A stretch of DNA of 64,000 bases, taken from Cyanidioschyzon merolae. Lineage: Eukaryota. The notes under the pieces are model-generated. The model ran no database searches. It was not told where the DNA came from and was given only the letters and a program-made list of their open reading frames with translations. The stretch lies in assembly GCA_000091205.1 (NCBI GenBank), contig AP006496.2. One strand, 5' to 3'. The translations under genes and the position numbers were made by a program. Shown here piece by piece: positions 1,151-62,347 of the stretch. The stretch's first letter is position 1. Each line of letters starts with the position of its first letter.

Positions 1151-2689
1151 GCTCCATCATCCAAGAGAGACCGGGCTAACTGAGAGGCTGCCTGAGCCCA
1201 AAAGCCTCGTCGTCGGGGGCCCGCCTGTGCACCGTGAAAGCAGCGCAGTCGTGCCACTAGCACAACCAAAGGCCGACTCGGCAACACGCGTCACGCAAAG
1301 ACGCCACTGAAACTCTGAAGAAATGCCAATGCCTCTTCGCTATTTCTGTTTCCAGTGAAGAAACTAGAACGTTGTGTGCAACGTTGTGCCGCCACTACCA
1401 GTGAGACTCAGAGTTCCCGCCTCGCCATCCGAACCCTGAGACGCATCCAGACGTGTCAAGCCAGAAAACAGCGACGTAGTCATACTTTGTACTGAAAAGT
1501 GTCCTTTGAATCCACGCACCATCACCCGCCGCGTATCGGGTCTGAGCGCTAAAGTCTGACGGTGCTCGGCGCAACGGCAACAGATGCGTGGTCATGGCGC
1601 CGGGAGCGGCACGCCTAGTGGCGAGTCGTGCATCCGCTAATCTTGGTACCGAGCAAATGCCACTTATGAACGGGCGATCGAGTCGGTGACCACTGTAGGC
1701 CGCGCGAGCGCAGTGTTTCGGCAACAGCAGAGATAACCTCAGTTTTCAATCGGGGGATACGTGCCGGACAGGTTTGGTTGGGGTTGATTTGGGCAATTTT
1801 CGCAGAAAAGTTGGCAAGGAACACATTTCATCTGCGTGCGTTGCAGTAAACTGCAGATCGAGACAAGTCCATGCATCAGACGAGCTCTCCGGAAAGGAAA
1901 GCGATTGCAGGTAGAATCTCGTGTAGAACGATTCGCTGTGCATGCTGAGGCCGAGGACCCGCATTCGAGCCTGTGCAGGGTACGGTGCATATCGAGACGA
2001 CGATCCTGTGCGGTGTGCTCCAGGACAAGTCGGTTTCCCGTGAAGACGTACGAGCGTGATACAGTTTTACCACTCACGCACAAGATCCTATTATTGGTTA
2101 CTCCGCGAACAAATCCATACGAGACTCGGCGACCTGATCTCAGAGCCGTTTCTCATAGTGTGCAGGCAGCTAGAAATCGGCCATATATAGCGAGAGCGCA
2201 GCGAAACGGGAAATGGCCCCAGACAGGTACAATGGGTTGAGTATACGAGCTCGCTGCAGCGCAGCGTGGATCAAACGGATCTTGCGAGAAATAATATTCA
2301 TGCCACAAATCGGAAGTACAATCCGTGAATATTAATATTAGACATGGGGCATAGCATGTGCAACAGATGATGCCAAGCGCCCAGAGTTCGGAATGCGCAA
2401 GCACGGCGTTTCGCTGGGTATCCAATGCATCGAAACCTCTGGTAGGATTCGTTTACAGATCGAATTGGCGTCAGGAAGCAGAGCGCTTGCCGCCCATCAG
2501 GCCGATTTGCGAGGCGTACGACGATGGATCTGCGGGTGCTGTGCCTCTCCTGGTTCGGGGCTCCCGTTCTACTCAGAGCAGCGAATTCTGGACAAGTGTA
2601 CCATGATCCCATCTTGTTGTTGTTTGTTTTCTAGCAGGTATTGAACGCCGGCAGTGTAGAGGATTGGCGAGTGACCTGCCCCAGACGAA

Positions 2690-5150: not shown

Positions 5151-5383
5151 CAAGAACAAGACACTTCGACGGACAGCGCATCGCAACGACGATTCCGCGC
5201 TCGATGCATCAACGGCGACGAGAACAGCAGCTGCGGCGGCGGCGGAGGCGGCGCGACGGCGACACAGCGCGATCGGCTCAGATGGTTAATACGAGCTGCA
5301 GGATCAATTCTGACAAGTTGAAGGGAACACTCTCTATCACCAATCACAGAGGCAAAACCCATAACAAGATAAAGTCTTAGTCA

Positions 5384-13698: not shown

Positions 13699-13920
13699 AC
13701 ACGAGCTAGAGAAACGTGATCCGCCAAGCGTGCAAAGTTAATCGACGCCACGAGCCTGCGCAGCGACGTTGCAAATAAGGCTTTTCGACTAAAAACAAAA
13801 ACAGGAAACGTATTATACAAGATATAGAAAAACAGAAGCCGACGGAGGGTGCACCGTCGACGTACCGAGCTCAAGATTCCAGCGCACGATCGCATCTCGC
13901 GAATCTTGTCACCACCGCCT

Positions 13921-15850
13921 ATCTAAAGACGCGTCGCCGGCGGTGCGCAGTACTGGTGGCGAACGCGCCTTAGACAAATCGTCTCCAACTGACGTGCCGA
14001 CGCCTCCGCGTCTATTTGGACCGGCCACCCACTACTGCTTTCAACTTCTTCTCATATAGTTCCACTTTGAGCGGTTATCCAACAAAGCCCTCTCGTGTCA
14101 ACTCCGGGCGTCTTCGTTCCACCAGCGCATATCGCCTTAGATAGATAGCGGCGTCAAAGTCTCGGTTCACGAATTCCATCCGTCTCTTGCCATTGATTGT
14201 ATACGCCAGTGCAAGCAATCCACGAACTTTTGCCCTCCTTTCCATTTGCTCCTCCGTCAGCGCTCGGTACTTTTTTATATTCTCAGGGCTCCGCTGACAC
14301 TTTTCCATCTCCACTCTCTGAAGTGCACACCCCGGTTCGTGGTGTGTATACATTGTTCGGAACTCGTCTACAGGCATCGTAACAATACGCCGTGCGCACT
14401 CCTTGCACGCTCTCTTTGTTGGAGATGGCGTCATTCCTTTTTTGGACGCCAAGCGCCCTGCCGCATACGCTCCTACGAGCCTCTGACTCGCGTCCTATTT
14501 GAGGGCGCTCAACTCATTGAAAACGTTCGCGAATGCCCGCTGCCTCCCACAGTATAGATTCATTCGCAAACAATCACACCGGGGCTTGGTATACTCCTCC
14601 CACAGCGCATCCCAATGGGCAACATGAACTTCCATGAATTTCCGAAAAGCTCGAAAGTCCGCTCCCCGGCTCATGACCTCGCTCAAGGCTTCCAGGTGAT
14701 CTTTCATTCCTGAATTCCAAGTCTCGATTTTCTTCCTTTTATCATTATACCGGATTCGCGGTAGTATCTCGCTCTCGAGAATCTCAAGAGACGCATGTCT
14801 TTCTTACGTAAGTTACCGTCAGTACCGTCTTCCGCACGTCTGGGTGCAGCAATGGTGATGATCTTCGTATTGCCAGGGTCCGCGCCAACGACAAAGTCGT
14901 TATCCTGCACTTTCTGCGTGGCAGGATCCGCCTCCTTCTTTTCTTCCTCCTTCGTCATGTCAACGACAAGGTCGTTATCCTCCACCTCCTGCGTCGCAAG
15001 ACCCGCCTCCTTCTCATCTTCCTGCTTCGACGCGCCATCGACAAGGTCGTTATGCTGCACTTTCTGTTCTGTGTGGCAGGATCCTCCTCAATGTTTTCTT
15101 CATCCTTCGTCACGGACGCAGCCGAGGGATGGACTGGCCGATCTTTCTTCAACCGCCGATAGTGTATACACAAGGCTACTCCATCGGTTTCGATCAACCC
15201 AGTGAATACCGTTTGCTTGCTCACTCTCAGACGTTTGGAATCGAAGATATTCTTCCAGTGGGTCTCCAGGTTTTCGCCGGTGAAGTCCTCCCTGCTAACA
15301 TCGAACTCGGGACTGATCTCTTTCATGCGGCGTCAAGGACTCTGGAGTCGATACTCACAAAATGTGACTTGAGGTTGCACATTGGAACGCCGTTGAAGCG
15401 CTTCCCCATTAGGAAATCCTTCCGTCTCTCCCACTCTTCATTTGCCTCTTCACTCAGCTTCATTTCTGCCTTGCGTTCGAGCTCTCGGTCCAGAAACGCG
15501 AGGTACCGCAGGACGAGGCGATAGTATCTTTCCTTATCTTCTTTCAACTCTGATATCTTGTCTGTCGAATCCGCCAACCCCAGAACCGCAGGGCGCTCTT
15601 GAATAGCCGCGCGGATTACAGAATCTTCATTCGTGCTCTCGTTTGACGACCTCTTGTCAAAGAATTCAATCTTATCTTCATGCTTACGATGGTTCGTGAT
15701 GCCGTTGATAATCGCCCATAGCCACTTGCAAGAGATACCCTGGGTACAGTGCAAACACGGCACGTATCATAAAACGCTCCAGGTTCACGATCATATGATT
15801 CTTCAGATTCGTGATGTGCGTACTCGGCCTGTCACAATTTACTCTGGCAT
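13921..15850 (-). mobile_element. Fanzor/TnpB-like element copy F2 (5'-truncated, multiple frameshifts)
   Basis: Minus-strand ORF pieces 14075..14452 (CxxC-like region, RGLLAL, NRDFDAAIY), 14495..14707, 14704..15060 ([17 protein letters not shown] with 3 acidic repeats), 14955..15326 and 15323..15763 are collinear with the F3/F5 protein. The conserved 3' tail is at 13921-14074. The N-terminal ~250 codons are missing, and the copy abuts a partial X/R2 repeat at ~15850. Confidence 0.7.
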
Positions 15851-19144: not shown

Positions 19145-19819
19145 ATGTCGTTCGCGCTACCCAGTCTGCTTTATGACTATGCGGCCTTGGAGCCACATAT
19201 TGATGCGTTGACGATGCAGATTCACCACACGAAGCATCATGGCACGTACATCAACAACTTGAACGGAGCTATCCAGGGTGAGCACGGCGGCTCGCTGAAA
19301 GGTCTCTCCCTGGAGGCCATCTGCCGGAACGTGAATTCGGCTCCAGAGGCAGTCCGGACTACGGTCCGTAACAACAGTGGCGGGCACTGGAACCACACCT
19401 TCTTCTGGACTATTATGGCACCAAGCGGCACAGCGGCGTCGGCGCCCAGCGGGGCACTCAAGAACGCCATCGAGTCGCAGTTTGGGAGCGTGGATTCATT
19501 CAAGGATCAGTTCAACAAGGCGGCTGCAGGACGTTTTGGATCCGGATGGGCCTGGCTCTGCATGAACCAGAATAAGCAGTTGTTCATCACGAGCACCCCG
19601 AACCAGGACAACCCGCTCATGAGCGGTATTGCGGAGAAACCCGGCTTGCCTATCCTGGGTCTCGATGTCTGGGAACACGCCTATTACCTCAAGTACCAGA
19701 ACCGTCGACCGGAATACATCGCTGCTTGGTGGAACGTTGTGAACTGGGACACTGTAGCCAAGTACTATGACGAAGCGTCTTCCGGGAAAGCGCCGGTACT
19801 CGATGTGCCTCTGCAGTGA
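19145..19819 (+). CDS. iron/manganese superoxide dismutase
   Basis: From ATG 19145: [40 protein letters not shown]...[10 protein letters not shown]...FGSGWAWL...[22 protein letters not shown], all canonical Fe/Mn-SOD metal-ligand and signature segments, 224 aa. The ORF track extends 123 codons upstream through a GC-rich (GGCGGCTGC)n stretch. Confidence 0.9.
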
Positions 19820-20016
19820 CTAGACAGCGTCACATCTTACCCTATGGCGTTCCGTGGGCGTCTTTAGGTCTGATAAGGAATGTCTTAAAAGGAATGCGTA
19901 TTGGTCGTTTGGTCCATGCGTCTCCAGAAGCAGGTTATTCGCCCGAAGTACCAGCAGCGCTTCGTTTTCAGCGCAGCAGCAGCAGCAGAAGCAGAAGCAG
20001 AAGCAGAAGCACTGCA

Positions 20017-20244
20017 GTGCTGCACATTTGCGCGGCGCCGAAGGATCACCTGCAAACACGCTCGTTTCGTCAAGGCGTTCAGCATCTAGGTACTGCCGCA
20101 GCGACAACGTCATACGAACAGGTGTTTGGTGTGCTGCACATTTGCGCGGCGCCGAAGGATCACCTGCAAACACGCTCGTTTCGTCAAGGCGTTCAGCATC
20201 TAGGTACTGCCGCAGCGACAACGTCATACGAACAGGTGTTTGGT
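20017..20244. repeat. tandem direct duplication, 2 x 114 bp, preceded by a (CAG/AAG)n microsatellite at ~19975-20010
   Basis: tgctgcacatttgcgcggcgccgaaggatcacctgcaaacacgctcgtttcgtcaaggcgttcagcatctaggtactgccgcagcgacaacgtcatacgaacaggtgtttggt occurs twice back to back. The ORF-track peptide VLHICAAPKDHLQTRSFRQGVQHLGTAAATTSYEQVFG is duplicated accordingly. Confidence 0.85.
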
Positions 20245-20557
20245 ATGGTGTCGAGCGCTCGTTGCTCCGAACAGCGCGCGCATCCCGATAGCAGCCACTG
20301 CACGCGCACAACGAGGAAACTGTTGTCTAGGCGCTTCGGATACGCCGCTTACTAGCCGCACTGATACCTCTGCAGTGTCTGACTGAATAGCCGAACCATC
20401 ACCGATACGGATTCGGTGTCTACTGTGCGACGTATGCCAAACAGGCCGTCGCTCATCGGCCCTGAAAAAAAGACGACACAAATCTTTTGCCGAATACTCT
20501 GGGCGGGGAGCAAACACAAGTCCCGCTGCTCGCACTCGGAGACACTACCAGGCCTTC

Positions 20558-25873: not shown

Positions 25874-25907
25874 ACGCGTGCCCGCTTGAGACGACCCGCA
25901 CCATCAA

Positions 25908-26000
25908 CGCCGCTCGAAAGTCGAACGGCGCCAACGGTGTACAGTAGTGGCGGCAACCGCGCCCTAGACGAGACGTCTCCAACGGGCGTGCAGACGCCTC
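25908..26000 (-). ncRNA. candidate omega-RNA (fRNA) scaffold region of copy F3: the conserved 3' end of the ORF plus the noncoding tail
   Basis: Sense sequence after the stop, ...ctagggcgcggttgccgccactactgtacaccgttggcgccgttcgactttcgagcggcg, is conserved with copies F2, F4 and F5 and then diverges exactly at the element end. No structure or expression evidence is available. Confidence 0.25.
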
Positions 26001-28318
26001 CCAGTTTGTTTGAACCGGAAACCCACTACTGCTTCCAACTTCTTCTCATATTGTCCCACTTTAAGAGGTTGTCCAAGAAAATTCTCTCGTGTCCACTCTG
26101 GAGGTCTTTTCTCCAGGACCGCACATTTCCTTGTATTGATGGCGGCATTCAAATCTCGGTTCACAAACTCCATCCGTTTCTTCCCATTGGTAGTTGTACT
26201 TCCTAGTGCACCTAGTCCTCGCACTTTCACTCTCCTTTCCATTTGCTCTTCCGTCAGCGGTCCGTACTTTTTCATATCCTCAGGGCTCCGTTGGCACGTT
26301 TCCATCTCGACCCTCTGAAGTATACACCCCAGTTCATGGTATGTATAGGACGTTCGGAACTCACCTACAGGTAGTGTAACAAACCGGTGTGCGCACTCCT
26401 TGTACGTTCTTGTCGTTGGAGCTGGTGTACACAATTTTTGGGTCTTCCATCGCCCCGCCCCATACGCTGCTACGAGCCTCTGACTTTCATCCTCCTTCAG
26501 GGCGCTCAACTGATTGAAAAAGTTGGCAAACGCCCGCTGCTTCCCACAATACAAATTCATTCGGAAACGAGCCCACCGGGGCTTGGTATACTCCTCCCAC
26601 GGCGCATCCCAATGGGCAACATGAACTTTCATGAATTTCCGAAAAGCTTCAAAGTCCGCTCCTCGGCTCGCCACCTCGCTCAAAGCTTCTAGGTCATCCT
26701 TCATTCCTGAATTCCGGCTCTCGATTTTCTCCCTCGCATTCATTATACCCGATTCTCGATTGTATCTCGCTATCGAGAACCTCAATAGACGCATGTCTTT
26801 CCGACGTAAACTACCGTCAGTACCATCTTCCGCACACTTCGGTGCTGCGATGGTGATGATATTTGTGTTTCCGGGGTCCGCGCCAACGACAAAGTCGTTA
26901 TCGTGCACTTTCTACGTCACAGGGCCCGCCTCCTTCTTTTCTTCATGCATCACCGCGTCAACGACAAGCACGTTATCCTCCACCTCCTGCGTCTCAGGAC
27001 CCGCCTGCTTCTTTTCTTCATGCATCGCCGCGTTAACGACAAGGTCGTTATGTTGCACTTTCTGTGTGGCAGGATCCGCCTCCTCCTTTTCTTTATCCAT
27101 TGTCACGGGCACACCCGAGGGCGGGACTAAACGATCTGCCTTCAAACGCCGATTGTGTACTCACGTGGCTACTCCATCAGTTTCGATCAACCCAGTAAAT
27201 ACCGTTTGCTTGCTCACTCTCAGACGTTTGAAATCGAAGATATTCTTCCAGTACGTCTCCCGGTTTTCGCCGGAGAGTTCCTCACTGTTGAAATTAAACT
27301 CGGGACTGATCTCCTTCATGATGCCGTAAAGGACGCCTGAATCGATACTCACCAAATGTGACTTGAGGTTGCACATTGGAACACCGTTGAAGCGCTTCCC
27401 CATTAGGAAAGCCTTCCGTCTCCCCCACTCTTCAGTGTTTTCCTCACTCAGCTTTATCTCCGCCTTGCGTCCAAGTTCTAGATCCAGAAACAAGAAATAG
27501 CGAAGAATGAGGCGATAGTGTCTTTCCTTATCTTTTTTCAACTCTGATATCTTTTCTGCTGGACTCGGCAGCCCCAGTACCCCACGGCGCTCTTGAATAG
27601 CCGCACGGATGACAGAAGTTTTACACCTTCTCCTGCGTGACGCCTTCTCTCCGACGAATTCGATCTCATCTTCATGCTTGTGATCGTTCGTGATGCCATT
27701 GATAATCGACCATACTCCTTTGCGAGACAGGCCCGGGTACAGCGCAAACACGGCGCGTATCATGAAACGTTCGAGGTTCATCGTCAAATGGTTCCTCAGG
27801 TTCGTGAGGTAATTCATTGCCCCGTGTTCGTAAATATCCCGGTTACCAATGTATCGAGTGCCCTCGAAGCGGAATTCCGCGAAGTTTTCGTGGAGGGCGT
27901 GTACCCGCTCATTTTCCCTCCGCGTTTCCCTTGCGCCGAGCATCAAGTGACGAACAAAGATATTGTCGAAAAACTCGTCTGGAATCTCGACTGTTTCCAT
28001 GTGCGTCACATCGCGATACATCTCCCTCGCCATACGCATCAGTCCTGAAGACGCCCTGACAATACTCTTGGAGTACGAATCGAGACGTTTTTTGATAGCG
28101 TCTCGCAACTTTTCCCTGTACGGATCCTTGATATGTTCAAGAAGACCGGCTTTCACCACCATATCGTCGTACAGTTGTCTTTCTTTCCGCCTTCGACGTA
28201 GGGCCTCTCCCCTTTGCTTCTTCTTCTCTTCCTTTTCTACTCGACTCGGCACTGTTTTTTGTTTTTTTCTAGCAGCCGGCGACCCTGGGCCTCCAGGATC
28301 GTCGACTTGCTTTTTCAT
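25964..28318 (-). pseudogene. Fanzor1-like TnpB-family RuvC nuclease gene of copy F3 (about 750 codons, 2 frameshifts)
   Basis: N-terminus is basic (KKQKTVPSRVEKEEKKKQRGEALRRRRKERQ). RuvC-I is [17 protein letters not shown] (D at 26878-26876). The Zn-finger-like region is YKECAHRFVTLPVGEFRTSYTYHELGCILQRVEMETCQRSPE. RGLGAL follows. RuvC-III is FVNRDLNAAINTRKC (D at 26155-26153). Confidence 0.7.
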
Positions 28319-28572
28319 AGGTTTCCTTTTTTTTTAGTTTTTTGAAAAAGAACGCTCTTTGAACCCTTATGTAATATACTGCGAACAAACACTTGACTAG
28401 ACTTATTTGAGGGTGAAACACAAATGAACTCAAAAACTGTACTTTGCTACGACTTTAACGCAAATAAAACTTGTACAGTAGAGCAGTGCGCTCCTGATCA
28501 GGATCGCGTTTCCCTTCAATGGCGACATGCGCGTCGTGTCAGGTGACTGCCTGATCTCCCGGGTGCGCTCAC

Positions 28573-29150
28573 CGAGCGCGATTTTTAGAATGGACAAAAC
28601 GTTTCCTTGTGCCAGCGTTCTCCGATTGTGCGCATTTTTCTTTTCTTTCTCTCTTTTTGTGTTTTTTTCAGTGCGCGGTGAGGTATCCATCAACCCCCTA
28701 CCTCCATGTTACATTACCGATACTTCATCGCGGATATTCTGGTCGTTTCATACGTCCTATGATGTGTGCCTAGTACCTGCCGTGCCGTACCCGCCTTTGG
28801 ACCTTAACAGCTGGGGCAGATAGTTCATAGAGACAGAACGGCTTTTCCATACCACAGAGGGCGCCGGCTCGAGGCGTGGTTTACCCGACGTAGAATTGGG
28901 TGTCGCCGTCAGTTTGTGCTCAGACAGTCTGCGGATGCAGGTTTGTCTTCGCTGCACGAAACGCTGGAGACACTTGGCTGTTAGGATATATCGTGGGAGC
29001 CGCCTCTCTCTTTCGTGATCATGCATGGAATGCGTTGTTGTCGGTTGGCAATGTGGCTTCGTGCTTGACACCCACCCACCACTGTGGGTAGGCGCAGAAA
29101 GCACTGGGCCCGTGTGCGCATCCGATTCGCTAGACCTTCCGCCTAGAAGG
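28573..29150 (+). repeat. R3 interspersed repeat (~590 bp), copy 1
   Basis: Near-identical by eye to 48990-49575. The first ~150 bp (gccagcgttctccgattgtgcgc..polypyrimidine..cagtgcgcggtgaggtatccatcaaccccctacc) are also at 60420-60600. Confidence 0.7.
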
Positions 29151-30386
29151 TAGCATGTGAGTTTCTTCGCCACTAATGAGCGCTGAGGCTCGGTTAGCGG
29201 ACCATAAGTTGCCAGTGCTACACTCAGAGTGAGTGTCCGGTCTTCGACTATCACGATGATGCCCAGCTGCTGGTGTCCTCCAAGGAGCTCGCTGCGCTCC
29301 TGCTTCCAGCGCGGGCACTGTAAGCCTAAATATGTCAGCGTCTCGGGGATCTCGTCTCGACAGCAGGGACAGTGTGATTCCCAGTGCGATTCCAGTGTTC
29401 CTATACGGCTTAGAGACGGTGCTGGTAGCCAGAAGCCACCAACGCGGATTTTGGCGAGCCACTGGGTACCTCGAGCAAGTCCCGGGAATTCCAGCGCCTC
29501 CTACCAGTGCCTGCATGTGTATGCTAGGTTGTAGTTCCGGTATAGAGTCAAGCCGGCGTTAAGGGCGCGACTGGTACCGTGTCTACGTTCCCATATTGTT
29601 GTTTGGACCGTTCGCTTCAGGCGGTGGGAGCCTTCTACATTTCTGGGGAACGATTCGAGCGCATTTTCGCCTAAGAGGCGCTTCAACCAAATATGCGTCC
29701 ATTTCATCCTTCTTGCGACGCACCTACCGGTACCGAGTACGTCTCGAGCCTCGTACGCGCTACCGCGGCATATGCCGACCTGCCTCTCTCTCTTCAGTGC
29801 AGAGCGGAGGACTCGACGCTGGACCTCTTAACGACACCGAAAGGCGCTGCTGTTGCTTCTGGGGAAGCACCCGCGACTATCCGTCCAACGGTCCGTACCA
29901 GAGACGTTTGGCACTAGCCCCTAGCGCACTGACAGCTTCGTGCTGCTTGCCGGGTTCGTTATTCGGGCTGCCGAGCGTTTCGGGACGGTAGTCACAGCGA
30001 GCGCCTCCGCTGAGGCAGTTTCACGCTCTTGGGGAAGGGGCGCGCACTTTGCAGGTCGCCAACGTGTCCAGCGTCAAGCCCAACGACTGAACTGCCGTCG
30101 ACTGAGTCGCACACGTACACATGCTCACTGGGACATCAGCGCCTTTCGCCGCTTTGGACTGAGGCTTTGGCGGCGTTTACTACCCGAGTCGGAGAAAAGT
30201 GCGGCGGGTCCGTGAATACTGGGCGGTTTATTGCAGCACTTGACCAGGGAGAAGGGTTGCAGTGAACAGCAGCACGCTACGACTACTGCGCAAAGCTGTT
30301 CGCGCGCGTCTGGTAGCGCTTCCAAGTTGTGTCGAGCGCAGCATAGGCACGAAGCAACGACCCCAAAACGGACGCCCTGAACCTGC

Positions 30387-41399: not shown

Positions 41400-42010
41400 G
41401 AAACGCAGTGATCGCTCCACTGGGTGAATCGCTGAAGCGTTCAGCACACGCTGGCACAACGGAGCACATAAAATCTTCCTTCTGCATGTGCGTCTGTCTC
41501 TGGGAAGGTCAGCACCTAAGGGCATAAACAAGGGCGTTCGTTTGAATACATTAAAAAATCCAGGGAAAGTTATGGACTCGGAAGTCCGAGATGTTTGAGG
41601 CCCGGTGTTGCCAGCTGCCGGATAAAAAACGGAAAGAATCCTTTTCTCGACAAACATCAAGCGAACAAGAGTATGTGACGAAGAAGAAAAAGAAAAGAGG
41701 GGACACAGCACAGCAAAGATGTTTGGCCGACGGGATAGTGACGATCCTGTTATGTCACAGAGGACACGAGTTCGAGGAATCCTTGCTTTGGTGAGTTCCA
41801 CCAGCGGCAATAAACGCATGAAGTTCGTGAACCGAGAATTCAACGTCACCATCAGGATCAGACGATCTGCGGTGCTAAACACGGGGACCGAGGACCCCGG
41901 GCGATTTAACTTCATGGGGCAGCCTCTCAGACTCGACTTGTACCCAGATAATTCGAAATCGATAGCAGACGGCCGGTCCAGGAAAAGCTGGGAGACGTCG
42001 GTGTAAGTTT
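41400..42010 (+). pseudogene. Fanzor/TnpB-like fragment F7 (C-terminal RuvC-III region only, truncated on both sides)
   Basis: ORF 41719..42006 encodes RVRGILALVSSTSGNKRMKFVNREFNVTIRIRR...GQPLRLDLY, a degenerate RGLLAL and NRDxNAAINI region. There is no conserved 3' tail. X/R2 repeat copy B starts at 42030. Confidence 0.5.
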
Positions 42011-42029: not shown

Positions 42030-42650
42030 GAACAGAAACTAACCATTCACTATCAACTCGATAACAATTTCTTCCCTGCTCTACCGTACACGTTTACAAG
42101 GGGAAAAGATTTCCGTATTTTCGAAAGCTTTCCTTCTAAGCGGAAGGTCCCGCGAGCCGGACGAGTCTGATGGGCTCGTGCTCCGTGCACCTCTGAAGTG
42201 CCCGGTGCTATAGTGAGGCCTGAACAGCTCCTCCGCAACGCACTATATTCTGGGACCAGGAGCAGGTAGGATGCATCCAGGTGTCGCCATAATCACAGAG
42301 GTCTCCGGGAATATCGCTTCGCGCTGTCGCAGGAAGTAGGCCTGTCTGCGCAGTTTGCAGACCCCCAGAATGCTGACAAGTCTGAATTCCGTATCGGATG
42401 AACCAAGCATCAAACCGACGCCCTGAGTGGTATGGCAAAGCCGTTCTGTCTCCGTGCAGCATCTGCTTCAACGGCATACGCGCGATTGCGGATGCAGCAA
42501 GACAGGTACCCGGCGCACGATCGAGCGTACATAACGACCGGTACATCCGAGAGGAACTATGGATCAGGGAACTTGCAAGTAGGTTGCAGCATGAAGGATG
42601 CTTTCTCGGTAACCAATATCCATCCCACAATCTGCGATCCATGGTCCAAG
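42030..42650 (+). repeat. X + R2 composite short repeat, copy B
   Basis: 42030-42312 (X: aacagaaactaaccatt...cccgcgagccggacgagt...) matches 53815-54113. 42313-42650 (R2) matches copies A, C and D. Confidence 0.65.
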
Positions 42651-48989: not shown

Positions 48990-49575
48990 TAAATATATCA
49001 TTAGGTATCTATATGCCACCACAGCAGCACGTTCGGATTTTTTCGCTGACAAAACGTTTACTTCGGCCAGCGTTCTCCGATTAAGCGCATTTGTTTCTTA
49101 CTTTTTTTGTGGTTTTTTTCAGTGGGCGGTAAGGTGTCCATCAAACCCCCGACCTCCAAGTTACATTGCCGATACCTCTTCTCGGATATTCCGGTCGTTT
49201 CATACGTCCCATCGGGTGTGCCTAGTGCCTGCCGTTCCGTATCCGCCTTTGGACCTTAAATGCTAGAGCAGATAGTTCATAGAGCTAGAACAGCTTTTCT
49301 ATACCCGAGAGGACGTCGGCTCGAGGCGTGCTTCACCCAACGTAGAATCGGGTCTCGTCGTCAGTTTGTGCTCGGACAGTCTGCGGATGCAGGCTTGCCT
49401 TCGCTGCACGACACGCTGGAGAAACTTGGCTGTTAGGATGAATGCTGGGAGCCGCCTCTCTCCTTCGTGATCATGCATGGAATGCGTTGTTGTCGGTTGG
49501 CAATGCGGGTTTGTGCTTGACACCCACCACAGTGGGTAGGCGCAGAAAGCGCACTGGCCCCGTATGCGTATCCGA
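48990..49575 (+). repeat. R3 interspersed repeat, copy 2 (no adjacent Fanzor gene)
   Basis: Aligns along its full length with 28573-29150. It lies ~280 bp upstream of the start of the minus-strand Dim1-like gene. Confidence 0.7.
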
Positions 49576-49905
49576 TTCGCTGGACCTTGCGCCCAGAAGG
49601 TACCCTTGATGCCGATGCGCGTCGCGCACATTAGCATAAGCGCATAACCTGGACAATCCGACACCATCCACCATGCAAGCTGCGGAAGGCAGTTTGGTGG
49701 CGCCATTCGTGCCAGAGGCGCTGCTGCGCTTTCGGTTGCGCGCGCTGGCCATCGAGGTAGCGCGAATGCTCGCCAAAGTGCGCGCACAGCTCGCGCAACG
49801 GAATCCTGTGTGGGGTGTAGCGAATTCTCCCCCCCAGGTACCGCTACGCTGCTGCACTGAGGTCGACTCCAAAAGGGTGCCTGTTGGAGGCGTGAACCGC
49901 CATCA

Positions 49906-50541: not shown

Positions 50542-51285
50542 TGTCACTTCTTTGCACAGTCACATAAAGGCCGCCAATGGTGCCCCTTCATGTTTATGAT
50601 GTAGAAGGCTTGCTGTGCGCCATGCAGCGCAGGAGGCTGCTTCGTTCCGCTGCGCACTCTGGTGCGTGCTCGCTACCGAACGCTTGCATGCATCTCCATA
50701 GCGGGGCGCAGTCGCACGTCTCCACAGAGCCATTCCGGACATGATCGTCTTGAATGGTTTGTGTGTTGGAATACAACCCGTGGTGAAGCGTGATGCCGGC
50801 GAGGGTGACGCTTACCACGAAAACACCTCCTGCGACCAGTCGTCTTGCGGGCAGCTCCAGCCAGCGCTTTCCTGACAGTAACTGTCTTCCGAGCAAACTC
50901 GCGTACGTCATATAATTCTGCAGACACGTCCCCGTTTCACGGAAGGGAAAATCTCGAGGAGCAAAGCGGAGCCGCCCGCACGCCCACACACACACATCTA
51001 TGATAGGGACGAGAACGGATCACCCAGCACTTGTGTGACGAACAGTGCTCCGTGTCGCGTTCTGTTTCCGTGCACGAAAGGCTTGCTTTCAGCGCTACTT
51101 GTCGTAATTAAGGACCGGCCAGACCGTTGGAGCAGTGTCCGGTGCAGTAGACCGCGTACCTGAAAGCCACAAAAGGCGCACAGGGCAGAGCGCCGTACTG
51201 CGTCCAGCTCGCGAAACCGGTCGCTTCTTTCGGGCGATGGGCGCGGTCGCCTGCTGCTGGTCCGTGGTATCGCCGACACAAGGAG

Positions 51286-51400
51286 CGCCTTAAAAGTCGA
51301 ACGTCGCCGGCGGCCGTGTACAGTAGTGGCGAGAAACCCGCCCTAGATAAAACGTCTTCAGCTGACGTGCAGACGCCTCCCAGCTTTTTTGGACAGGCTA
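51286..51400 (-). ncRNA. candidate omega-RNA scaffold region of copy F4
   Basis: Sense tail after the stop, agacgttttatctagggcgggtttctcgccactactgtacacggccgccggcgacgttcgacttttaaggcg, is conserved with F2, F3 and F5 up to the last base and then diverges. Confidence 0.25.
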
Positions 51401-53790
51401 CCTACTACTGCCTCCAACTTTTTCTCATACAGCTCCACTTTGAATGATTGCGCAACAAAGTTCTCTCGTGTCAACTCTGGAGGTCTTCTTTCCACCACGG
51501 CACATCTCCTTATATTGATAGCGGCGTTAAAGTCACGATTCACAAACTCCATACGTTTCTTGCCATCTTTGTTTGTACACAGTAATGCGAGTAGTCCACG
51601 AGCTTTCGCCCTGCTTTCCATTTGCTCCTCCGTCAACGCTCCGTACTTTTTTACATCCTCAGGGCTTCACTGGTACTTTTCCATCTCCACTCTCTGAAGC
51701 GTACAACCCACTTCATGGTGTGTATACGACGTCCGGAACTCATCTACAGGTATCGTAACGAGATGCCTTTCACACACCTTGTGCGTTCTTGTAGCTGGAG
51801 CTAGCCTAGTCCCTTTTTCCCACGCCTACCGCCCTGCCCAATACGCTTCTACTAGCCTCTGACTGTCGCTCTCCTTCAAGGCGCTCAACTCATTGAAAAA
51901 ACTCGTGAACGCACGCTGCCTCCCACCGTGTAGATTCATACACAACCGAGCCCACCGGGGCTTTGTATACTCCTCCTACAGCGCCTCGCAATGAGCAACA
52001 CGAACTTCCATAAACTCCCGGAAAGCGTGAAAGTCCGCTCCCCGGCCCGTCACCTGGCTGATCGCTTCCAGGTGCTCTTTCAATCCTGCGTTCCACGCCC
52101 CACTTTTCTTCCTTTATTCATTACACTGAATTCTCGGTAATATCTCGTTCTTGAAAGCTTTAAAACACGCATGTGTTTTTGACGTAGGTTGCCGTCGATG
52201 CCATCATCCCCGCAATTGCGTGTTGTGATGGTCATGATATTCGTGTTCCCAGGGCCCGCGCCAACGACAAAGTGGTTCTCATGCACCTCCTGCTTCGTGG
52301 GGCTAGCCTCTTTGTTTTCTTCACGCTTTGCCAGCGACGGCAACGAAGACAGAACTGGACGATCCGCCTTCAAGCGCCGATAATGTACACGCATGGCTAT
52401 CGCATCACTTTCGATCATCCCAGTAAAGTCCTTTTTCTTGCTCGTTCTGAGACGTTTGGAATCGAAGATATTCTTCTTCCAGTACGTCTCCTGGTTTTCA
52501 CCGGTGAACTCCTTGTTGCTTACATCGAACACTGGACAGATCTCCGTAATGATGCCGTAAGGGATTTCGGAGTCGATACTCACAAAATGTGACTTGATGT
52601 TGCACAACGGAACGACGTTGAAGCGCTTCTCCAGAAGCGCAGCTTTCCGTTTCTCCGTCACTGCATTTGCTTCAACACCCTGCTCCATATCGGTCTTGCA
52701 TTTCAGTTGTCGGTTCAGGAATATGGTATAGCGCAAGATGAGGCGATCGTATCTTTCCGAATCTTTTTTCAACTCTGATATCTTTTCTGCTGGACTCGCC
52801 AGCCCCAAGACCACACGATGCTCTTTAATAGCTGCACGGATTACAGAATCCTCATTTGCTCTCCTGCGTGATGTCTTCTCGTGAACAAATTCGATCTACT
52901 GTTCATTCTTACTATCGTTTGTGATGCCATCGATGATGGTCCATATCCCTTTGCGAGAGGGGCCCGGGTAGCGCGTACAGACGGCGCGTATCATGAAACG
53001 TTCCAGGTTCATGGTCAAATAGTTCTTCAGGTTCGTGAGGTGCTTCATAACCCCGACGGTGTAAATACGCGAGTCACCCCTGTCTCGAGTACCGTTGAAG
53101 CGGAATTCGGCGTAATTTTCGTGGAGGGCATGCACCCGCTCATTTCTCCTCGACGTTTCCCCTGTACCAAGCATCAGGTGACGAATAAAGGTTTTGCCGA
53201 AAAATTCTTCCAGAACCTCGACTGTTTTGATGCCCGTTGCGTCGTCGCGCATCTCCTTCACCAAATGCATTATACCTGCAGAAGCCATCATAACACTCAT
53301 GGAGTCTGACTCGATACGGTTTCTGATGGCCTCTCGCAGCTTTCGCCGGGACGGATCCTTGATATGTGCGAGAAGACAGGTTTTCACCACCATCTGGTCG
53401 TACTGTCGTGTTTCGTTCAGCTTCTGACCTCGGGCCTCCCTCTTTTGCTCCATCGTCTTCTCATGTTCCTTTTAGCTCCGCCATGTTTTTCCTTAGTCTC
53501 CGGCAGTCGACGACACCAGATGTCCAGGATCCTCCAGTTTCTTTTCCACAACTTTTTCATTATTTTTGAAGAAGAAGAAGGCTCTTTCAACGCTTCTGAT
53601 ATGAATCGCTAAAATTGATTTGAATACACTAACTTGAGGTTTGAAACACAATTGCATTAAACAACTTTAATTTGTTACGACTTTAACGCAAATACAACTT
53701 GTACGGTAGAACAATAAGAAAACGGATTTTCACAATTTCGCGTTTCCTTTCAACGGCGACACGTGCGTCTTGTCTCGTACGACCTGATCT
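51286..53790 (-). mobile_element. Fanzor/TnpB-like element copy F4 (full length, frameshifted)
   Basis: Minus-strand ORF pieces 51358..51636 (RGLLAL..FVNRDFNAAINIRRCAVVE), 52080..52814 ([14 protein letters not shown] with a single acidic repeat unit) and 52896..53453 (N-terminal domain, starting MEQKREARGQK...). The conserved 3' tail is 51286-51357. The 5' UTR (gactttaacgcaaatacaacttgtac, cgcgtttcctttcaacggcgacacgtgcg...ctgatctccccggcgcgc) ends at ~53790, where repeat X begins. Confidence 0.75.
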
Positions 53791-53814
53791 CCCCGGCGCG
53801 CTAACCGACCGCAG

Positions 53815-54448
53815 CATACAGAGCAAAGAACAGAGACTAACCATTAACTAGCAACGATATACCAATTTATCTTCCCTGCACGATAAACGATAAAAAGGAA
53901 ACACGATTCCCGTTTTGTCGAAAGTTGAATTTCTCGACGGAAAAACCCGCGAGCCAGACGAGTACCCCAGGCACGTGCTTCGTGCTCGCCTCCCAGTGGC
54001 GGGTGCTGCACTGAAATCTGAGCAATTCGTCTGCAGCACTGTTTATTCTGGTACTAGCGGCAGTTAAACTGCATCTGGGCGTCGATCCGGTCGCGGTGGA
54101 GTCCTAGTATAGAGCTTCACGCTATCGCAGGCAGTGTGTCTGTCTGCGGAGCTTGCTGGCTCCCAGAATGATCCTATACTCCAACTCTGTGTCAGGTGGA
54201 GCATTCCTCGATCCGACGCCCTCAGTAGTACGGCAACGCTGCTCTGTATCTGTGATGCATCGGCATCAGCGGATTAGACGCTAAGGCGGGTGCATCAACG
54301 CATGCACCCGGCGAATGACAGGAAGCACGAGACGAGTAGTACATCTGAAAGGAAGTATACGTAATGGAATCTGGAGTTAGAATGCAGCATGATGGACGCT
54401 TTCGCTGAATCCGATACCCATTTATAGCACAATCTGGGATCCATTGTC
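53815..54448 (+). repeat. X + R2 composite repeat, copy C, lying between the head-to-head Fanzor copies F4 and F5
   Basis: 53815-54113 matches 42030-42312. 54114-54448 matches R2 copies A, B and D. Confidence 0.65.
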
Positions 54449-54802
54449 AATATAAGTGTTTTTCCATCGGAAAAATGAAGCGTGTAGCTCTAACGTACAA
54501 ATTGTAACGATGTTCAAGTCGTAGAAAAATACATTGTTTGTCCTCAATCGTGTTTCAACCTTCACTCTAGTGTATTCAAGTGCTTTTTCGTGCGTAATAG
54601 CTGTCCCATCCAAAGTGGTTTCGGTTTTTATATTGAAAAAGGAAAGTTACGGAAGTGGAAGTGTAGGATCCTGGGCGTCAATGTCGCCGGCAGCCCGAAA
54701 AAACGAAGAACAGTGCCAAGTGCAAAGGAACAGGATAAGAAGAAGAAGTAAAAGTGGAAGGCCCTACGTCAAAGGCTACACAAAAGACGACGGTACGACG
54801 AG

Positions 54803-56838
54803 ATGGCGGTGAAAGCCTGTCTTCTTCAACATACCAAGGATCCGTACAGGGAAAACGTTCGAGAGGCAATATGGAACCGTGTCGAGCCGAACTCCAGCGG
54901 TGTTCGTGATGCTTCTCAAGGAATGTTGCATTTCCTAAGAAAATGGTATCATGACGTTACGGACATCAAAACAGTCGATATTCTGGGTGAATTTTTCAAC
55001 AAAACCTTTATTCATCACTTTATGCTTGGCACCGGGGAAACGTCTAGGTGAAATGAGCGAGTTCATGCCCTCCACAAAATTTACGCCGAGTTCCGCTTCG
55101 ACGGTACTCGATACAGGGGGGATTGGGATATTTACATCTACGGGGCGATGAAGTACCTCACCAGTCTAAAGAACCATTTAACAATGAACCTCAAAAGCTT
55201 CATGATACGCTCCATCTTTGCACTCTACCCCGGTCTCACTCGTCAGGGGATATGGGCGATTGTCAATGGCAACACGAACGATCGCAAGCATGAAGATGAG
55301 ATTGAATTCATCGACGAGAAGAAATCACTCAGGAGCATGAATGAGGATTCCGTCATCCGAGCGGCTATACAAGAGCATCGTACGGTACTGGGGTTGGCGA
55401 ACCGAGCAGCAAAGATATCAGAGTTGAAAAAAGATAACGAAAGATACTATCGCCTCGTCCTGCGTTACTTTGTGTTTCTGGGCCGTGAGCTCGAACGCAA
55501 GGCAGAGATGAAGCTGAGTGAGGAAAAAATGAAGAGCGGGGGAAACGAAAGGCTGCGCTTCTGGGTAAGCGCTTCAACGTCGTTCCGTTGTCCAACATCA
55601 AGTCACGTTTTGTGACTATCGATTCCAGAATCCTTTACGGCATCATGAAAGACTTCAGCCCCGAGTTTAATGTCAGCAGGAAGGAGAGTACCGGTGAAAA
55701 CCGGGAGACGTACTGGAAGAATATGTTTGATTTCACACGTCTGAAAGTGGGCAAACAAAAGGTATTCACAGGGGTGATCGAAACCGATGGAGTAGCCATG
55801 TGTATTCACTATCGGCGCTTGAAGGCGGATCGTCCAGTTCCGTCTTCGATAGTGTCCGTGACGAAGCATGAAGATGAGAAGGAGGCGGATTGTGCCACAC
55901 AGAAAGTGCAGGATAACAACTTTGTCGTTGGCGCGGACCCTGGGATTACGAATATCGTAACCATCGCTGCTCCCAAGCGTGCGGAAGATGGTAACGACGG
56001 TAACACACGTCAGAAAGGCATGCGTCTGTTGAGGTTCTCGAGAGCGAGATACCACCGAGGATCCGGCGTAATGAATGCAAGGAAGAAAATCATTACATGG
56101 AATTCAGGAATGAAAGAGCACCTGGAAGCTTTGAGCGAGGTGACGAGCCGAGGAGCGGACTTTAACGCTTTTCGGGAGATTATGGAAGTTCGCGTTGCTC
56201 ATTGGGATTCGCTGTGGGAGGAGTATACAAAGCCTCGACGGGCTCGTCTGCTTATGAACCTGTATTGTGGGAAGCGGCTTGCATTCGCCAACTTTTTCAG
56301 TCAGTTGAGCGCCTTGAAGGAGGATGAAAGTCAGAGGCTCGTAGTAGCATACCGAGCAGGGCGCTGGGCGTCGAAAAAAGGAACTACGCCAACTCCAACG
56401 ACAAGAACGTACAAGGAGTGCGCACGGCGCTTCGCTACGATACCTGTAGATGAGTTCCGAACATCCTATACAAACCATGAACTGGGGTGCACGCCTCAGA
56501 CGGTCGAGATGGAGAAGTGTCAGCGAAGCCCTGAGGATATACAAAAGTACGGACCGCTGACGGAAGAGCATATGGGAAGGAGGGCGAAAGTTCGAGGGCT
56601 ACTTGCACTAATGAGTACAACCAATGATAGTAAGAAACGTATGGAGTTTGTGAATCATGACTTAAATGCCGCGATCAATATCAAGAGATGTGCGGTGCTG
56701 GAGAAGAGACCTCCAAACTGGACAAGAATGAACTTTATTGGACAACCTCTCAAAGTCAAACTATATGAGAAGAAGTTGGAAGCAGTAGTAGGCGGCCGGT
56801 CCAAGAAAACTGCGAGGCGTCTGTACGTAAGTTGGTGA
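54803..56838 (+). pseudogene. Fanzor1-like TnpB-family RuvC nuclease gene of copy F5
   Basis: RuvC-I is [18 protein letters not shown] (D at 55936-55938). The Cys-containing region is YKECARRFATIPVDEFRTSYTNHELGCTPQTVEMEKCQRSPE. RGLLAL follows. RuvC-III is FVNHDLNAAINIKRCAVLEKR (D at 56659-56661). Confidence 0.7.
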
Positions 56839-56907
56839 TGTCTAGTCTGGGGCGCGGCGATCGCCACTACTGTACCACTGGCGACAGCGTTTTTCTTTTG
56901 AAAGGCG
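56740..56907 (+). ncRNA. candidate omega-RNA scaffold region of copy F5
   Basis: After the stop at 56836-56838: tgtctagtctggggcgcggcgatcgccactactgtaccactggcgacagcgtttttcttttgaaaggcg. This is conserved with the other copies and diverges at 56908. Confidence 0.25.
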
Positions 56908-56944
56908 TTGGTTTCCAGGGGCGCGCGCTACAGCAACGCCTCTG

Positions 56945-57517
56945 GTGCGCCTGCTGGGTATGACGGCAGACGCAGCTTGGCCAGCGCTCGTGGTTAGCTT
57001 TCTCCTGGGGCTTTTCGCAGGGCGCCGCAGCAAGCACCAACGAACTGGTGCCAGCGGGCTGGACACGAGTGCATCGGGCGCGCCTGCTGGGTCAGTGATC
57101 GACAGCACGCCCGCTGATGCACCGTTCGCCTCGCTGGTGCCGCTCGCGTCGGCGCCGTCAGGGACCACCGCTGACGTTAAACTGATGCTCATCGTACGTC
57201 GTGACCTGAAGATGAGCCCTGGCAAAATTGCCGCTCAATGCGGGCATGCCTCTGTCGGTGCTTTTAGAGGGTGTACGGATCGCGCGCTGCTGGCTGCTTG
57301 GGATCGAAACGGCCAGCCGAAAATTGCGCTGCGCTGCAGCTCACTGAAAGAGCTGTTGGCGATCGAACGGGCGGCCCGGCAGCTTCGTATACCGACTTTT
57401 GCCGTACGCGACGCGGGGAGAACGCAGGTCGTGGCGGGCACGATTACGGTGCTGGCTGTTGGGCCTGCCGAGAGTGCCAAACTCCAGAGAATCACCGGCC
57501 ATTTGAAGCTACTTTAA
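56945..57517 (+). CDS. PTH2: peptidyl-tRNA hydrolase 2 (PTH2 family) with N-terminal membrane anchor
   Basis: The N-terminal TM helix is AAWPALVVSFLLGLFAG. The domain VKLMLIVRRDLKMSPGKIAAQCGHASVGAF...GQPKIALRCSSLKELLAIERAARQLRIPTFAVRDAGRTQVVAGTITVLAVGPAESAKLQRITGHLKLL is collinear with PTH2. Confidence 0.85.
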   Translation: MRLLGMTADAAWPALVVSFLLGLFAGRRSKHQRTGASGLDTSASGAPAGSVIDSTPADAPFASLVPLASAPSGTTADVKLMLIVRRDLKMSPGKIAAQCGHASVGAFRGCTDRALLAAWDRNGQPKIALRCSSLKELLAIERAARQLRIPTFAVRDAGRTQVVAGTITVLAVGPAESAKLQRITGHLKLL

Positions 57518-60419: not shown

Positions 60420-60835
60420 CAACGAAAGATGCTGCAAATTTTTTCCCATTGCCAAGACGCGTACCAAGGCCAGCGTCCTCCGATTGTGCGCTTTTGCTTT
60501 TTTCTTTTTCTTTTCATTTTTTTTCAGCGCGCGGTTAAGCATCCATCAAACCCCCTACTTCCAAACTCCGTAACCCATACTACTCCTCGGATACACTGAT
60601 CGCTTCATAGGCTGTATCGTTCGCTGAGCGCATGCCGCAAGCGTCCCTTGTGGAGCTTGTACCGTTGGCACGAATGCATCTCAATGACAGAACGGCTTTG
60701 CCGTACTAATGAGGACGCCGCCTCGGTGCTTGGTTTATCCAACATGGAATCGGGATTCACTATCATTACGAGAGCCTGCAAGCTGCGCAGACAGACCTAC
60801 TGCCTGCAACAGCGCGAAGAGATTTACCAGGATAA
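60420..60835. repeat. R3 5' fragment (plus orientation, 60420-60600) abutting R2 copy D (minus orientation, 60600-60835) in the SppA promoter region
   Basis: 60455-60600 matches the first ~150 bp of R3. The reverse complement of 60600-60835 matches R2 (cttcgcgctgttgcaggcag...ctcgtaatgatag...ggcaaagccgttctgt). Confidence 0.6.
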
Positions 60836-61089
60836 TCCTGCGAACACGGGCGACTCCTAGACGCAGCGCACCAGCTCCTAGTCCCGAACTGAACTGCGTT
60901 GCGGGCGAGCTGCTCAAGTCTCGCCATTGCACCCACCACTTGGTGGAGCATGAAGTTTCAGCGCGGCGGAGTCGTCTGGCTCGCGGGACGCCCCGACTAA
61001 AAGGTGAACTTTCGACCATGCGAAACAATTTTGCCAGCTTCAACACGTACCGTCGAGGCAAATATTCGTATATCGTTGCTAGGTAGCGT

Positions 61090-62000
61090 TCGTTTCCGTG
61101 ATTATTTTCTACAGCGCAGTCGATACGCACACCATCATATTTGGGAGATGACATTGACGGCAGCCTGCGCCACAATGAGATGCGTCTTTTGAAGTTCTCG
61201 AGAGCTGCATATTGCCGACAGTCGGAGATAATGAAGCCCAAGAAATACTGCACCCTGCAACGCTGAACAGAAGGAGTACCTGGACGCGATGAGCAAAGTC
61301 GCGTCGCGCGGAGCGGACTTTCGAGCTTTTCTCGAATTCACGGAAACTCAAGCTGCTCATGCCGAGGAGCTGTGGAAAGAGAGTATCCAAAGCCCCGGTG
61401 GGCTCGTCAGCGCATGAACCTTCGCAGAGGGAAGAAGCGGGTACGCGGCATGTTCATGAATCAGTTGAGCGCCCTCAAGCAGGACAAGAGTCAAAGGCTC
61501 GTAATTGGATACGCAGCAGGGCGCCGGGTGTCCAAAAAGCTAGCGTACCAGCTCCATCGACAAGAGCGCGCAAGGAGTGCACACACCGTTTCATCGCAAT
61601 ACCGACAGATGAGTTCTGAACGTCCTACGTGCACCAGGGGCTGTGGTATACGCTTCTGGAGGTCGAGATGGAAAAGTGCCAGCGGAGGGCTGAGCATATA
61701 CAAAAGTGCGGAGACCTGACGGTGCAGGAAATGGCACGAAGGGCGCGAGTTCGAGTACTCCTCGCTCTAGTGGGTTCAAGCAGCGGCAACAAACACATGC
61801 AGATCGTGAATCGAGACTTTAACGCCGCTTTCAATATCAGGTGATGTGCGGTACTGGAGAAGAGATTCGAGGGGTTGACACGATCCAATTTTGTGCCACA
61901 AACTCTCCGAGTCCAACTGTAAAACGAGAACTTGAAACCAATAACAGGCGGCCGGTCGATAGAGACGGAGCGGCGTCAGCACGTCGGTACATAGGTACCC
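61090..62000 (+). pseudogene. Fanzor/TnpB-like fragment F6 (5'-truncated, degenerate C-terminal half)
   Basis: Plus-strand frames encode ..MRLLKFSRAAY.., ..YPKPRWARQRMNL..GKKRVRGMFMNQLSALKQDKSQRLVIGYAAGRR.., RFIAIPTDEF.., and LLEVEMEKCQRRAEHIQKCGDLTVQEMARRARVRVLLALVGSSSGNKHMQIVNRDFNAAFNIR, the last two being the Cys region and RuvC-III. Confidence 0.6.
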
Positions 62001-62347
62001 GCGCGATCATCGTACCGTATTCAAACGCGATCCCCAGAAGCAGCGCGCAATCGCAACCGCAGCTGTGCACTGCATCGGTGCGCGCGGAGGCGGCGGCGCG
62101 ATGCGTGAATCTGCTGCGGGCGTACGCTCGTCTGCCGGAGGCATCCAGCGCCTCCAGGTGACACTTCAGGGCTGGTAACGTCTTCGAAAAGCCAGAGCAA
62201 GGGATAGCTGTGTGTACCGAAGCACCGCCATAGATTGCTAAAGTCTTTTGCGGTACTTGTTTTTAGCACCTGGCTCGAGTCCCGGGCGCTCGTCGGGGCC
62301 ACTGTAGTTCGTGCGCGCGCGCGTTTCCGGAGTAACCAGTACTGCGG

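Follow-up and report, generated by a model that had tools for sequence, protein, structure and literature searches.

We analyzed a 64,000-nucleotide (nt) stretch of contig AP006496.2 from the red alga Cyanidioschyzon merolae (assembly GCA_000091205.1), hereafter the window, which carries host genes alongside five diverged repeat copies (F1 to F5) that are 2.3-3.3 kb long each and share ~75-85% pairwise identity. The host proteins PTH2, SGNH esterase, PDH E2, and phosphate transporter encoded in the window were identical to those that C. merolae 10D encodes on an 852,727-bp chromosome. Judged by their sequences, the five repeats are decayed copies of CMe-1A, a Fanzor1 element of this alga, and our subject is the non-coding tail that separates the nuclease gene of these copies from the right end of the element. 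CMe-1A has been reported at ~150 copies, each ~80% identical to the consensus, lacking inverted repeats, with target-site duplications left undetermined, and with a 5′ part in common with TE-N2_CMe, a ~635-bp element (Bao & Jurka 2013, PMC3627910). The open reading frames (ORFs) of all five window copies were split by frameshifts or stops. One metagenome scan yielded 80 related loci from hot-spring samples, which together with the window provided 86 tails at 53 distinct insertion sites.

The nuclease of the repeats is, by profile matches and motif conservation, Fanzor1, in line with the nuclease that a preliminary description of this DNA, made from the letters alone, had placed upstream of the tail. 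Specifically, an exhaustive HMMER search with the family returned 1,489 relatives, and a profile built from 50 of them matched the solved Fanzor1 structures from Parasitella (PpFz1, 9cf0; E = 1.9e-18), Spizellomyces (SpuFz1, 8gkh; E = 8.5e-12), and Guillardia (GtFz1, 9cer; E = 2.3e-5). The catalytic order D...E...D (GxDPG, DEFRT, NRDxNAAxN) was present in F5, the ORF of which is broken into separate frames upstream of its C-terminal half, and across the 50 relatives D117 and E289 were invariant, while D358, N360, A362, and N364 were at least 90% conserved and the NRDxNAAxN motif was nearly invariant. A local Pfam scan of the ORF pieces and of longer metagenome homologs gave no match, a PDB search with a shallow family profile gave a chance match only, and an AlphaFold2 model from a shallow alignment had a mean pLDDT of 31, too low for use. 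Many homologs (P0002 and others; loci L082-L084 and L091-L095) came pre-tagged with Pfam PF26935, named DUF8286, a domain of unknown function that, by the profile match to the solved structures, falls within the Fanzor1 proteins. Additionally, a 75-nt (25-amino-acid) acidic tandem repeat was present in the middle of the ORF (window positions 3597-3971, 26878-27105, and 14880-15109; columns 270-390 of alignment A1), the number of repeat units ranging across elements from one to at least five.

Most of what the preliminary description had said about the tail itself was borne out. The sequence quoted for F5 was present at 56839-56907, the tails of F4, F3, and F2 aligned to it, and F1 was truncated, with homology lost ~45 nt after the stop. 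The shared motif was also correct, its core 14-mer CGCCACTACTGTAC occurring exactly three times in the window, in F3, F4, and F5; at up to three mismatches there were 12 matches in the window against 4.06 ± 2.15 expected, a count that none of 100 shuffles reached. Of the 53 independent insertion sites that the window and the hot-spring metagenomes provided, 49 retained the tail, although conservation as such is accounted for by descent within a repeat family. The tail had been placed directly 3′ of the F5 stop codon, and it does lie there, but that stop (TGA, 56836-56838) is premature and the canonical stop position (56848-56850) now reads TGG.

The position of the element end required correction. 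The copies had been said to diverge at exactly the same point, after ...GAAAGGCG (56907), with the adjoining flank proposed as the equivalent of a guide; instead, homology runs on for ~12-15 nt, as far as ~56921 in F5 and 25896 in F3. Information content past ...GGCG was mostly ~0.25-1.0 bit over ~9-16 further positions, and subfamilies shared the 3′ extensions TTGWTGGTGYRCGG, TTTGTTTCCAGGGG, and TTTGTTGYTGCTGG, which form the 3′ arm of a long hairpin with the conserved upstream CTGTACACCGYTGG as its 5′ partner. Once a covariance model had been used to set the ends, none of the 20 flank positions beyond them held more than 0.21 bit. Sequence conservation stops exactly at the base of this second stem-loop (SL2), where the element has its right end. 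Copies terminated in either ...GGTGYRCGG or ...CCAGGGG, and five copies of the subfamily to which F5 belongs diverged after CAGGGG. Because the right end moves outward by 11-15 nt, the intervals earlier taken as guide equivalents (for example 56908-56927) are mostly element sequence, and neither the former element end nor any of the four intervals stands; positions 56908-56921 make up the terminal hairpin's 3′ arm, which other copies share. If the tail is an omega-RNA, the candidate guide positions would be the flanks just outside the corrected ends of F5 and F3 (Table 1).

F3, F5, and F2 all point toward a co-oriented host gene, the distance from the right end to the first ATG being 29 nt for the SF1 helicase downstream of F3 (25867-25896), 39 nt for PTH2 downstream of F5 (56921-56960), and ~240 nt for the phosphate transporter downstream of F2 (13668-13910). 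Read-through from the elements, if any, would enter all three. We also observed a tail-only copy in the metagenome locus L018 (2024-2102; orthologue in L019), which had both stem-loops, scored 53 bits with the covariance model, and lacked the ORF end that normally precedes them. Another full element is situated ~700 nt downstream, and this copy and its orthologue were the only pair to emerge from a search for such ghost copies.

The sense strand of the tail is predicted to fold into two stems. SL1 has the form UAG-GGCGNN-loop-NNCGCC-A-CUA, with 6-9 bp and one bulge, and contains the canonical stop codon, while SL2 is a hairpin of 22-26 bp; counted from stop codon to right end, the tails of F3 and F5 measured 71 and 74 nt, respectively. 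Stability was compared with dinucleotide shuffles (z-scores). The best-preserved tail in the window was that of F3 (minimum free energy [MFE] -40.9 kcal/mol; z = -4.0 sense, -1.56 antisense; 83.5 bits with the covariance model), followed by F5 (MFE -32.2 kcal/mol; z = -2.67 sense, -0.78 antisense), which had the same fold as the consensus of its subfamily, B1. Tails of F4, F2, and F1 no longer folded above background. Metagenome copies reached lower z-scores still: L028 (-41.6 kcal/mol; z = -6.2 sense, -1.5 antisense), L024 (-37.8 kcal/mol; z = -5.5 sense), and L047 (-38.5 kcal/mol; z = -5.4 sense, -2.9 antisense). The sense strand was the more stable in 36 of 39 non-redundant copies (mean -21.5 versus -14.3 kcal/mol antisense), an asymmetry inherited from ancestors, so that the 39 copies are not 39 independent observations.

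Two comparisons are free of alignment bias. The 5′ arm paired better with its own 3′ arm than with the arms of other copies (-23.4 versus -20.9 kcal/mol; permutation p = 2e-4), and the outer 5′ arm paired better with the first 24 nt past GGCG than with later windows (-11.1 versus -8.3 and -8.9 kcal/mol; p = 4e-4 against the next 24 nt). Moreover, every subfamily consensus folded as SL1 plus SL2 and did so better than individual copies, the A1 consensus forming a single uninterrupted 24-bp helix (-50.0 kcal/mol) that exceeded any single copy, as expected if copies decay from a structured master. Subfamilies A and B differed by indels on both arms and by a shift of the apex register, and the long hairpin was kept in both.

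Covariation and a conserved fold across the tails had been named beforehand as the check on the proposal, and both the two-stem fold and covariation in SL2 were found. The covariance model was built from six A1 copies, and 38 matches were aligned to its 33 pairs. In this alignment, which is fitted to the model so that the counts lean toward structure, 81.2% of cells paired (77.6 ± 0.6 in shuffles), 22 of 33 pairs had changes on both sides (11.2 ± 2.0), and 58 further pair types were present (48.2), with none of 500 shuffles as high for any of the three measures; when partners were slid against each other, only 33-49% of cells paired. Seven of the 33 pair columns had a G·U majority and none had an A·C majority. 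Such ancestral G·U pairs mean that the fold works on the sense strand only, that is, the master sequence was built for this strand.

The SL2 apex of subfamily B, for example at 56890-56899, contains runs of five and four uridines (TTTTTCTTTT), which would terminate RNA polymerase III, so RNA of these copies would more likely arise via polymerase II read-through. A candidate extra stem in the ORF end (CGTCT/AGACG) was dropped, since its pairing was no commoner than in shuffles.

The predicted layout fits the plan of Fanzor1 (Fz1) omega-RNAs. The three solved Fz1 RNAs have an SL1 of 7 bp and a variable SL2 before the guide (PMC11423790), and all tested Fanzors bind RNA from the 3′ non-coding region abutting the right end (PMC10530073). 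The CMe-1A tail is also placed as omega-RNAs are: it lies on the sense strand, begins at the stop codon of the nuclease gene, and extends as far as the element does on the right, with SL2 ending at the boundary. The omega-RNA of SpuFz1 from Spizellomyces punctatus has a 75-nt scaffold (Saito et al. 2023, PMC10432273; structures 8gkh and 9ceu-9cez) and, compared by size and layout, resembles the ~71-74 nt tail of CMe-1A in having two stems and a linker, with a long second stem that in SpuFz1 is partly dispensable. The two proteins belong to the same family, and in both elements conservation stops where a variable, flank-derived guide starts or would start. They differ in that the SpuFz1 element has intact inverted repeats, CATA as its target-adjacent motif (TAM), and an RNA documented both by small RNA-seq and by cryo-EM, whereas CMe-1A is without inverted repeats, has dead ORFs, and did not reveal a TAM.

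For bacterial TnpB in IS200/IS605 elements such as ISDra2, the scaffold of the omega-RNA (reRNA) likewise derives from the 3′ portion of the nuclease gene together with the element's right end; the right-end hairpin is included in the RNA, and the adjacent flank supplies the guide. These bacterial RNAs overlap the ORF extensively and accompany the TnpA Y1 transposase, whereas the CMe-1A tail overlaps the stop codon only and no transposase is encoded. The closest intact relatives that we found were Fanzor1 genes within DDE_3 (Tc1/mariner-like) elements of brine metagenomes (P0181, P0328, and P0329; L091-L096), P0181 being 42% identical to the F5 ORF. As in CMe-1A, a non-coding tail (~183 nt) was conserved up to the right end, here the right inverted repeat, and copies diverged directly after it; unlike CMe-1A, these elements had a DDE_3 transposase gene, inverted repeats (TATACTC...GGAACA), and a tail more than twice as long. 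The account of Bao & Jurka (2013, PMC3627910) treats the same family and predates the discovery of omega-RNAs, and in its available part the 3′ tail, its two hairpins, and the exact right end are not described. In the library searched, no paper retrieved for Cyanidioschyzon in combination with Fanzor or TnpB concerns this RNA.

On these grounds, we interpret the tail as the 3′-terminal non-coding module of CMe-1A and hold with moderate confidence that in once-active master copies it most likely served as an omega-RNA (fRNA) scaffold. Thus, from the preliminary description, the candidate scaffold is retained on the basis of its position, sense-specific two-stem fold, and covariation, while its end and guide intervals are replaced. 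Such a function would belong to the ancestral active element rather than to the copies in the window. The latter are fossils, with broken ORFs, three of five tails unfoldable, and no sign of present constraint.

Several results weigh against this interpretation, in addition to the shared ancestry of the copies and the fitted alignment noted above. SL1 taken alone paired in 76.5% of cells versus 75.3% in shuffles, and its covariation was not significant. When RNAalifold was applied to ordinary MAFFT alignments, whether of the whole set of tails or of a single subfamily, the consensus was absent or trivial; the subfamilies pair in different registers, and there are indels in the 3′ arms. The tail showed no significant sequence similarity to those of the DDE_3 relatives (p = 0.07-0.36), and Rfam returned chance-level matches only (E = 1.1 and 5.5). 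No TAM-like motif could be defined at the 5′ boundary, this side being a mosaic of recurrent modules. None of the ORFs in the window copies or at the 80 metagenome loci was intact, and the longest at these loci (722 amino acids) lacked both ends. Across strains, the divergence of orthologous copies was 1.01% for the ORF end, 0.74% for the tail, and 0.38% for the flank; the tail value was not clearly below that of the dead ORF, and no present-day purifying selection on the tail was seen. Finally, in columns with a Watson-Crick majority, minority G·U cells (45) were about as numerous as A·C cells (41), which indicates neutral decay since insertion. We conclude that selection on the structure acted while the lineage was active and that copies, once inserted, decayed neutrally.

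Three other explanations were considered, each less likely than an omega-RNA. The terminal hairpin might be a DNA-level transposition signal, that is, a right-end hairpin recognized on one strand by a transposase acting in trans, as in IS200/IS605 or at the 3′ hairpin of Helitrons. G·T wobbles are tolerable in single-stranded DNA hairpins, so the strand specificity of the fold is no proof of RNA and counts for such a signal as well. The exact coincidence of the element end with the hairpin base, another, small hairpin (GCGCTCGGTGAGCGC) where the common core starts, and the lack of terminal inverted repeats or recognizable target-site duplications described for the family (PMC3627910) all point the same way. 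Yet none of the copies or loci examined encoded an HUH or Rep transposase, the element does not terminate in CTRR at its 3′ end, and the closest intact relatives reside in DDE_3 elements with inverted repeats rather than in hairpin-end elements, and we consider a DNA signal in place of an RNA unlikely, if the least so of the three. In bacterial IS200/IS605 elements the right-end hairpin and the omega-RNA overlap, so a DNA signal would also be compatible with an omega-RNA in CMe-1A.

That the tail is conserved merely as part of a repeat family, its structure being a by-product of GC-rich, G/T-skewed sequence and model-fitted alignments, seems to us less credible still. Copies ~80% identical would resemble one another by descent alone (PMC3627910), and the lack of present-day constraint, the non-significant covariation of SL1, and the empty RNAalifold result on unfitted alignments agree with this explanation. 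It does not account for dinucleotide-shuffle z-scores down to -6.2, for subfamily consensuses that outfold their members despite different arm sequences and indels on both arms, or for the significance of the alignment-free tests (own versus foreign arms; adjacent versus distal flank); likewise, double-change pairs and further pair types, measures that are rarely false-positive, exceeded all 500 shuffles. We judge most improbable of the three that the stems are ordinary 3′-untranslated-region elements of the Fanzor mRNA, acting in 3′-end formation or stability with no guide function. A structure that is sense-specific and begins at the stop codon would be in keeping with such a role, as would the fact that no guide or TAM evidence was obtained. 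Against it, the structure reaches the last base of the element, so with any transcript-end signal the RNA would terminate in flanking DNA; the tail agrees in size and two-stem layout with the solved Fanzor1 omega-RNAs; and every experimentally tested Fanzor binds RNA from this same region (PMC10530073).

On the opposite, 5′ side, the common core has a sharp start, at 28582 in F3, and the sequence upstream of it was a mosaic of at least five recurrent module classes. The core start (28560-28582 on the minus strand in F3) held, at most loci, a small hairpin AT-CGCGCTC-GGT-GAGCGCA, and in one subfamily GCGCG-CTCGATA-CGCGC, also a hairpin; it might act as a left-end signal or mark where transcription begins. 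Five independent 5′ junctions of the ~660-nt module class had unrelated flanks (...CTTCA, ...GGGCG, ...TGCTG, ...CTGATT, and ...ATTCG). Searches for terminal inverted repeats gave only a weak, non-robust match between the 5′ module terminus and the tail at the SL2 apex (p ~0.01 in 2 of 10 comparisons). CMe-1A copies contained no DDE transposase ORF, and no HUH, Rep, or Y1 transposase ORF was present in or beside them. No element-free allele was found upstream of PTH2, all 10 of 10 contigs carrying the insertion.

At the F5 locus (56825-56960; L081-L090) there were two natural haplotypes. Across the 3′ half of SL1 (CGCCACTACTG...), SL2, the flank, and PTH2 they were identical, but upstream of this stretch both the 5′ half of SL1 and the ORF end clearly differed. 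The pattern suggests that ectopic gene conversion took place between copies of the element, its breakpoint lying within SL1. Such conversion would also account for the higher divergence of orthologous elements (1.0%) compared with that of their flanks (0.38%).

Table 1. Features of the CMe-1A copies in the window, with predicted stem-loops and right ends as placed here.
Feature	Position	Strand	Description
F1	~2640-5167	-	Repeat copy span
F1 tail	2640..2684	-	Truncated: SL1 and start of SL2, then unrelated sequence
F2	~13910-15817	-	Repeat copy span
F2 tail	13910..13973	-	Decayed; fold z -0.21
F2 right end	~13910	-	Formerly 13921; homology to F3 ends at 13910
F3 core	25896-28582	-	5′ hairpin ATCGCGCTCGGTGAGCGC, Fanzor1 ORF in two pieces, then tail
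F3 upstream module	up to ~29450		~870 nt, repeated; beyond 5′ end of core
F3 SL1	25945..25966	-	Includes stop TAG 25966-25964
F3 SL2	25896..25944	-	22 bp: 19 contiguous, 2-nt bulge, 3 outer pairs; 6 G·U
F3 right end	25896	-	Formerly 25908
F3 flank	25880..25895	-	Candidate guide position just outside element
F4 composite	51271-54475	-	Core up to 53815 plus ~660-nt 5′ module 53816-54475 of TE-N2_CMe kind
F4 tail	51266..51345	-	SL1 intact, SL2 decayed, 3′ arm end ~51271; covariance model 36.7 bits; fold z 0.02
F4 right end	~51271	-	Formerly 51286
F5	~54476-56921	+	Repeat copy span
F5 ORF, C-terminal half	55588..56838	+	RuvC motifs GADPG, VDEFRTS, NHDLNAAINI; terminates at premature TGA
F5 SL1	56848..56869	+	GC-rich, GGCG...CGCC core; starts at canonical stop site (TAG to TGG), closes with ACUA; outer pairs conserved
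F5 SL2	56870..56921	+	5′ arm CTGTACCACTGGCGACAGCG, apex TTTTTCTTTTGAAAGG, 3′ arm CGTTGGTTTCCAGGGG; paired 56875-56920
F5 right end	~56921	+	Formerly 56907
F5 flank	56922..56937	+	First ~16 nt outside element, CGCGCGCTACAGCAAC; candidate guide position; ends 23 nt before PTH2 ATG 56960

Other repeats in the window adjoin or resemble these copies. Between the heads of F4 and F5, at 53816-54475, lies a ~660-nt repeated module, probably TE-N2_CMe, which adjoins the 5′ end of the F4 core exactly; elsewhere the module is in the opposite orientation against the core, for example at 28583-29450 in F3, and a solo copy is present at 49048-49602. Insertion of F4 into F5 was ruled out, as the sequence to the left of F4 is not a continuation of F5. 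A sixth, more divergent Fanzor-like remnant was located at 60450-62010 (plus strand), and also at ~41800-41890 and ~42290-42590, with ~70% identity over 61143-61906 and a 3′ tail unrelated to that of CMe-1A. Three metagenome copies, L069, L002 (near 6516), and L004 (near 8470), similarly had tails different from the CMe-1A tail, and together with the remnant they suggest that a sister subfamily with another tail probably exists. ARAGORN detected no tRNA in the window. Lastly, a perfect 114-bp tandem duplication (20017-20244; two copies, 100% identical) lies ~300 nt past the stop of the large SF1 helicase ORF (20558-25873, minus strand) and overlaps shorter ORFs at 19816-20355 (plus) and 19820-20311 (minus).

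If the tail functioned as an omega-RNA scaffold, transcription through the ORF of an active CMe-1A element would produce an RNA composed of the ~71-74 nt scaffold and ~15-20 nt from the DNA flanking the right end. Fanzor1 would bind SL1 via its RuvC/TNB surface, and the flank-derived 3′ segment would direct it to cut TAM-adjacent matching DNA, namely an element-free copy of the same site, whereupon recombinational repair could restore or spread the element. C. merolae has efficient homologous recombination. One may speculate further that CMe-1A is a eukaryotic Fanzor element that spread without a transposase of its own, mainly by RNA-guided cutting and homologous recombination. This would fit the absence of inverted repeats and target-site duplications, a right end defined only by the SL2 base, the interchangeable 5′ modules, and gene conversion, but we regard it as improbable.

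For the window, these results correct the element boundaries by 11-15 nt and show that the sequence just upstream of the PTH2 and helicase start codons is still transposon. The ~150 genomic copies would form a natural data set on the decay of a putative guide-RNA module. If the omega-RNA interpretation is true, the only Fanzor family reported from a red alga would gain its first concrete RNA partner together with an exact right end. C. merolae is a model organism with a compact genome and easy gene targeting. Both the scaffold and the protein could be resurrected as consensus sequences.

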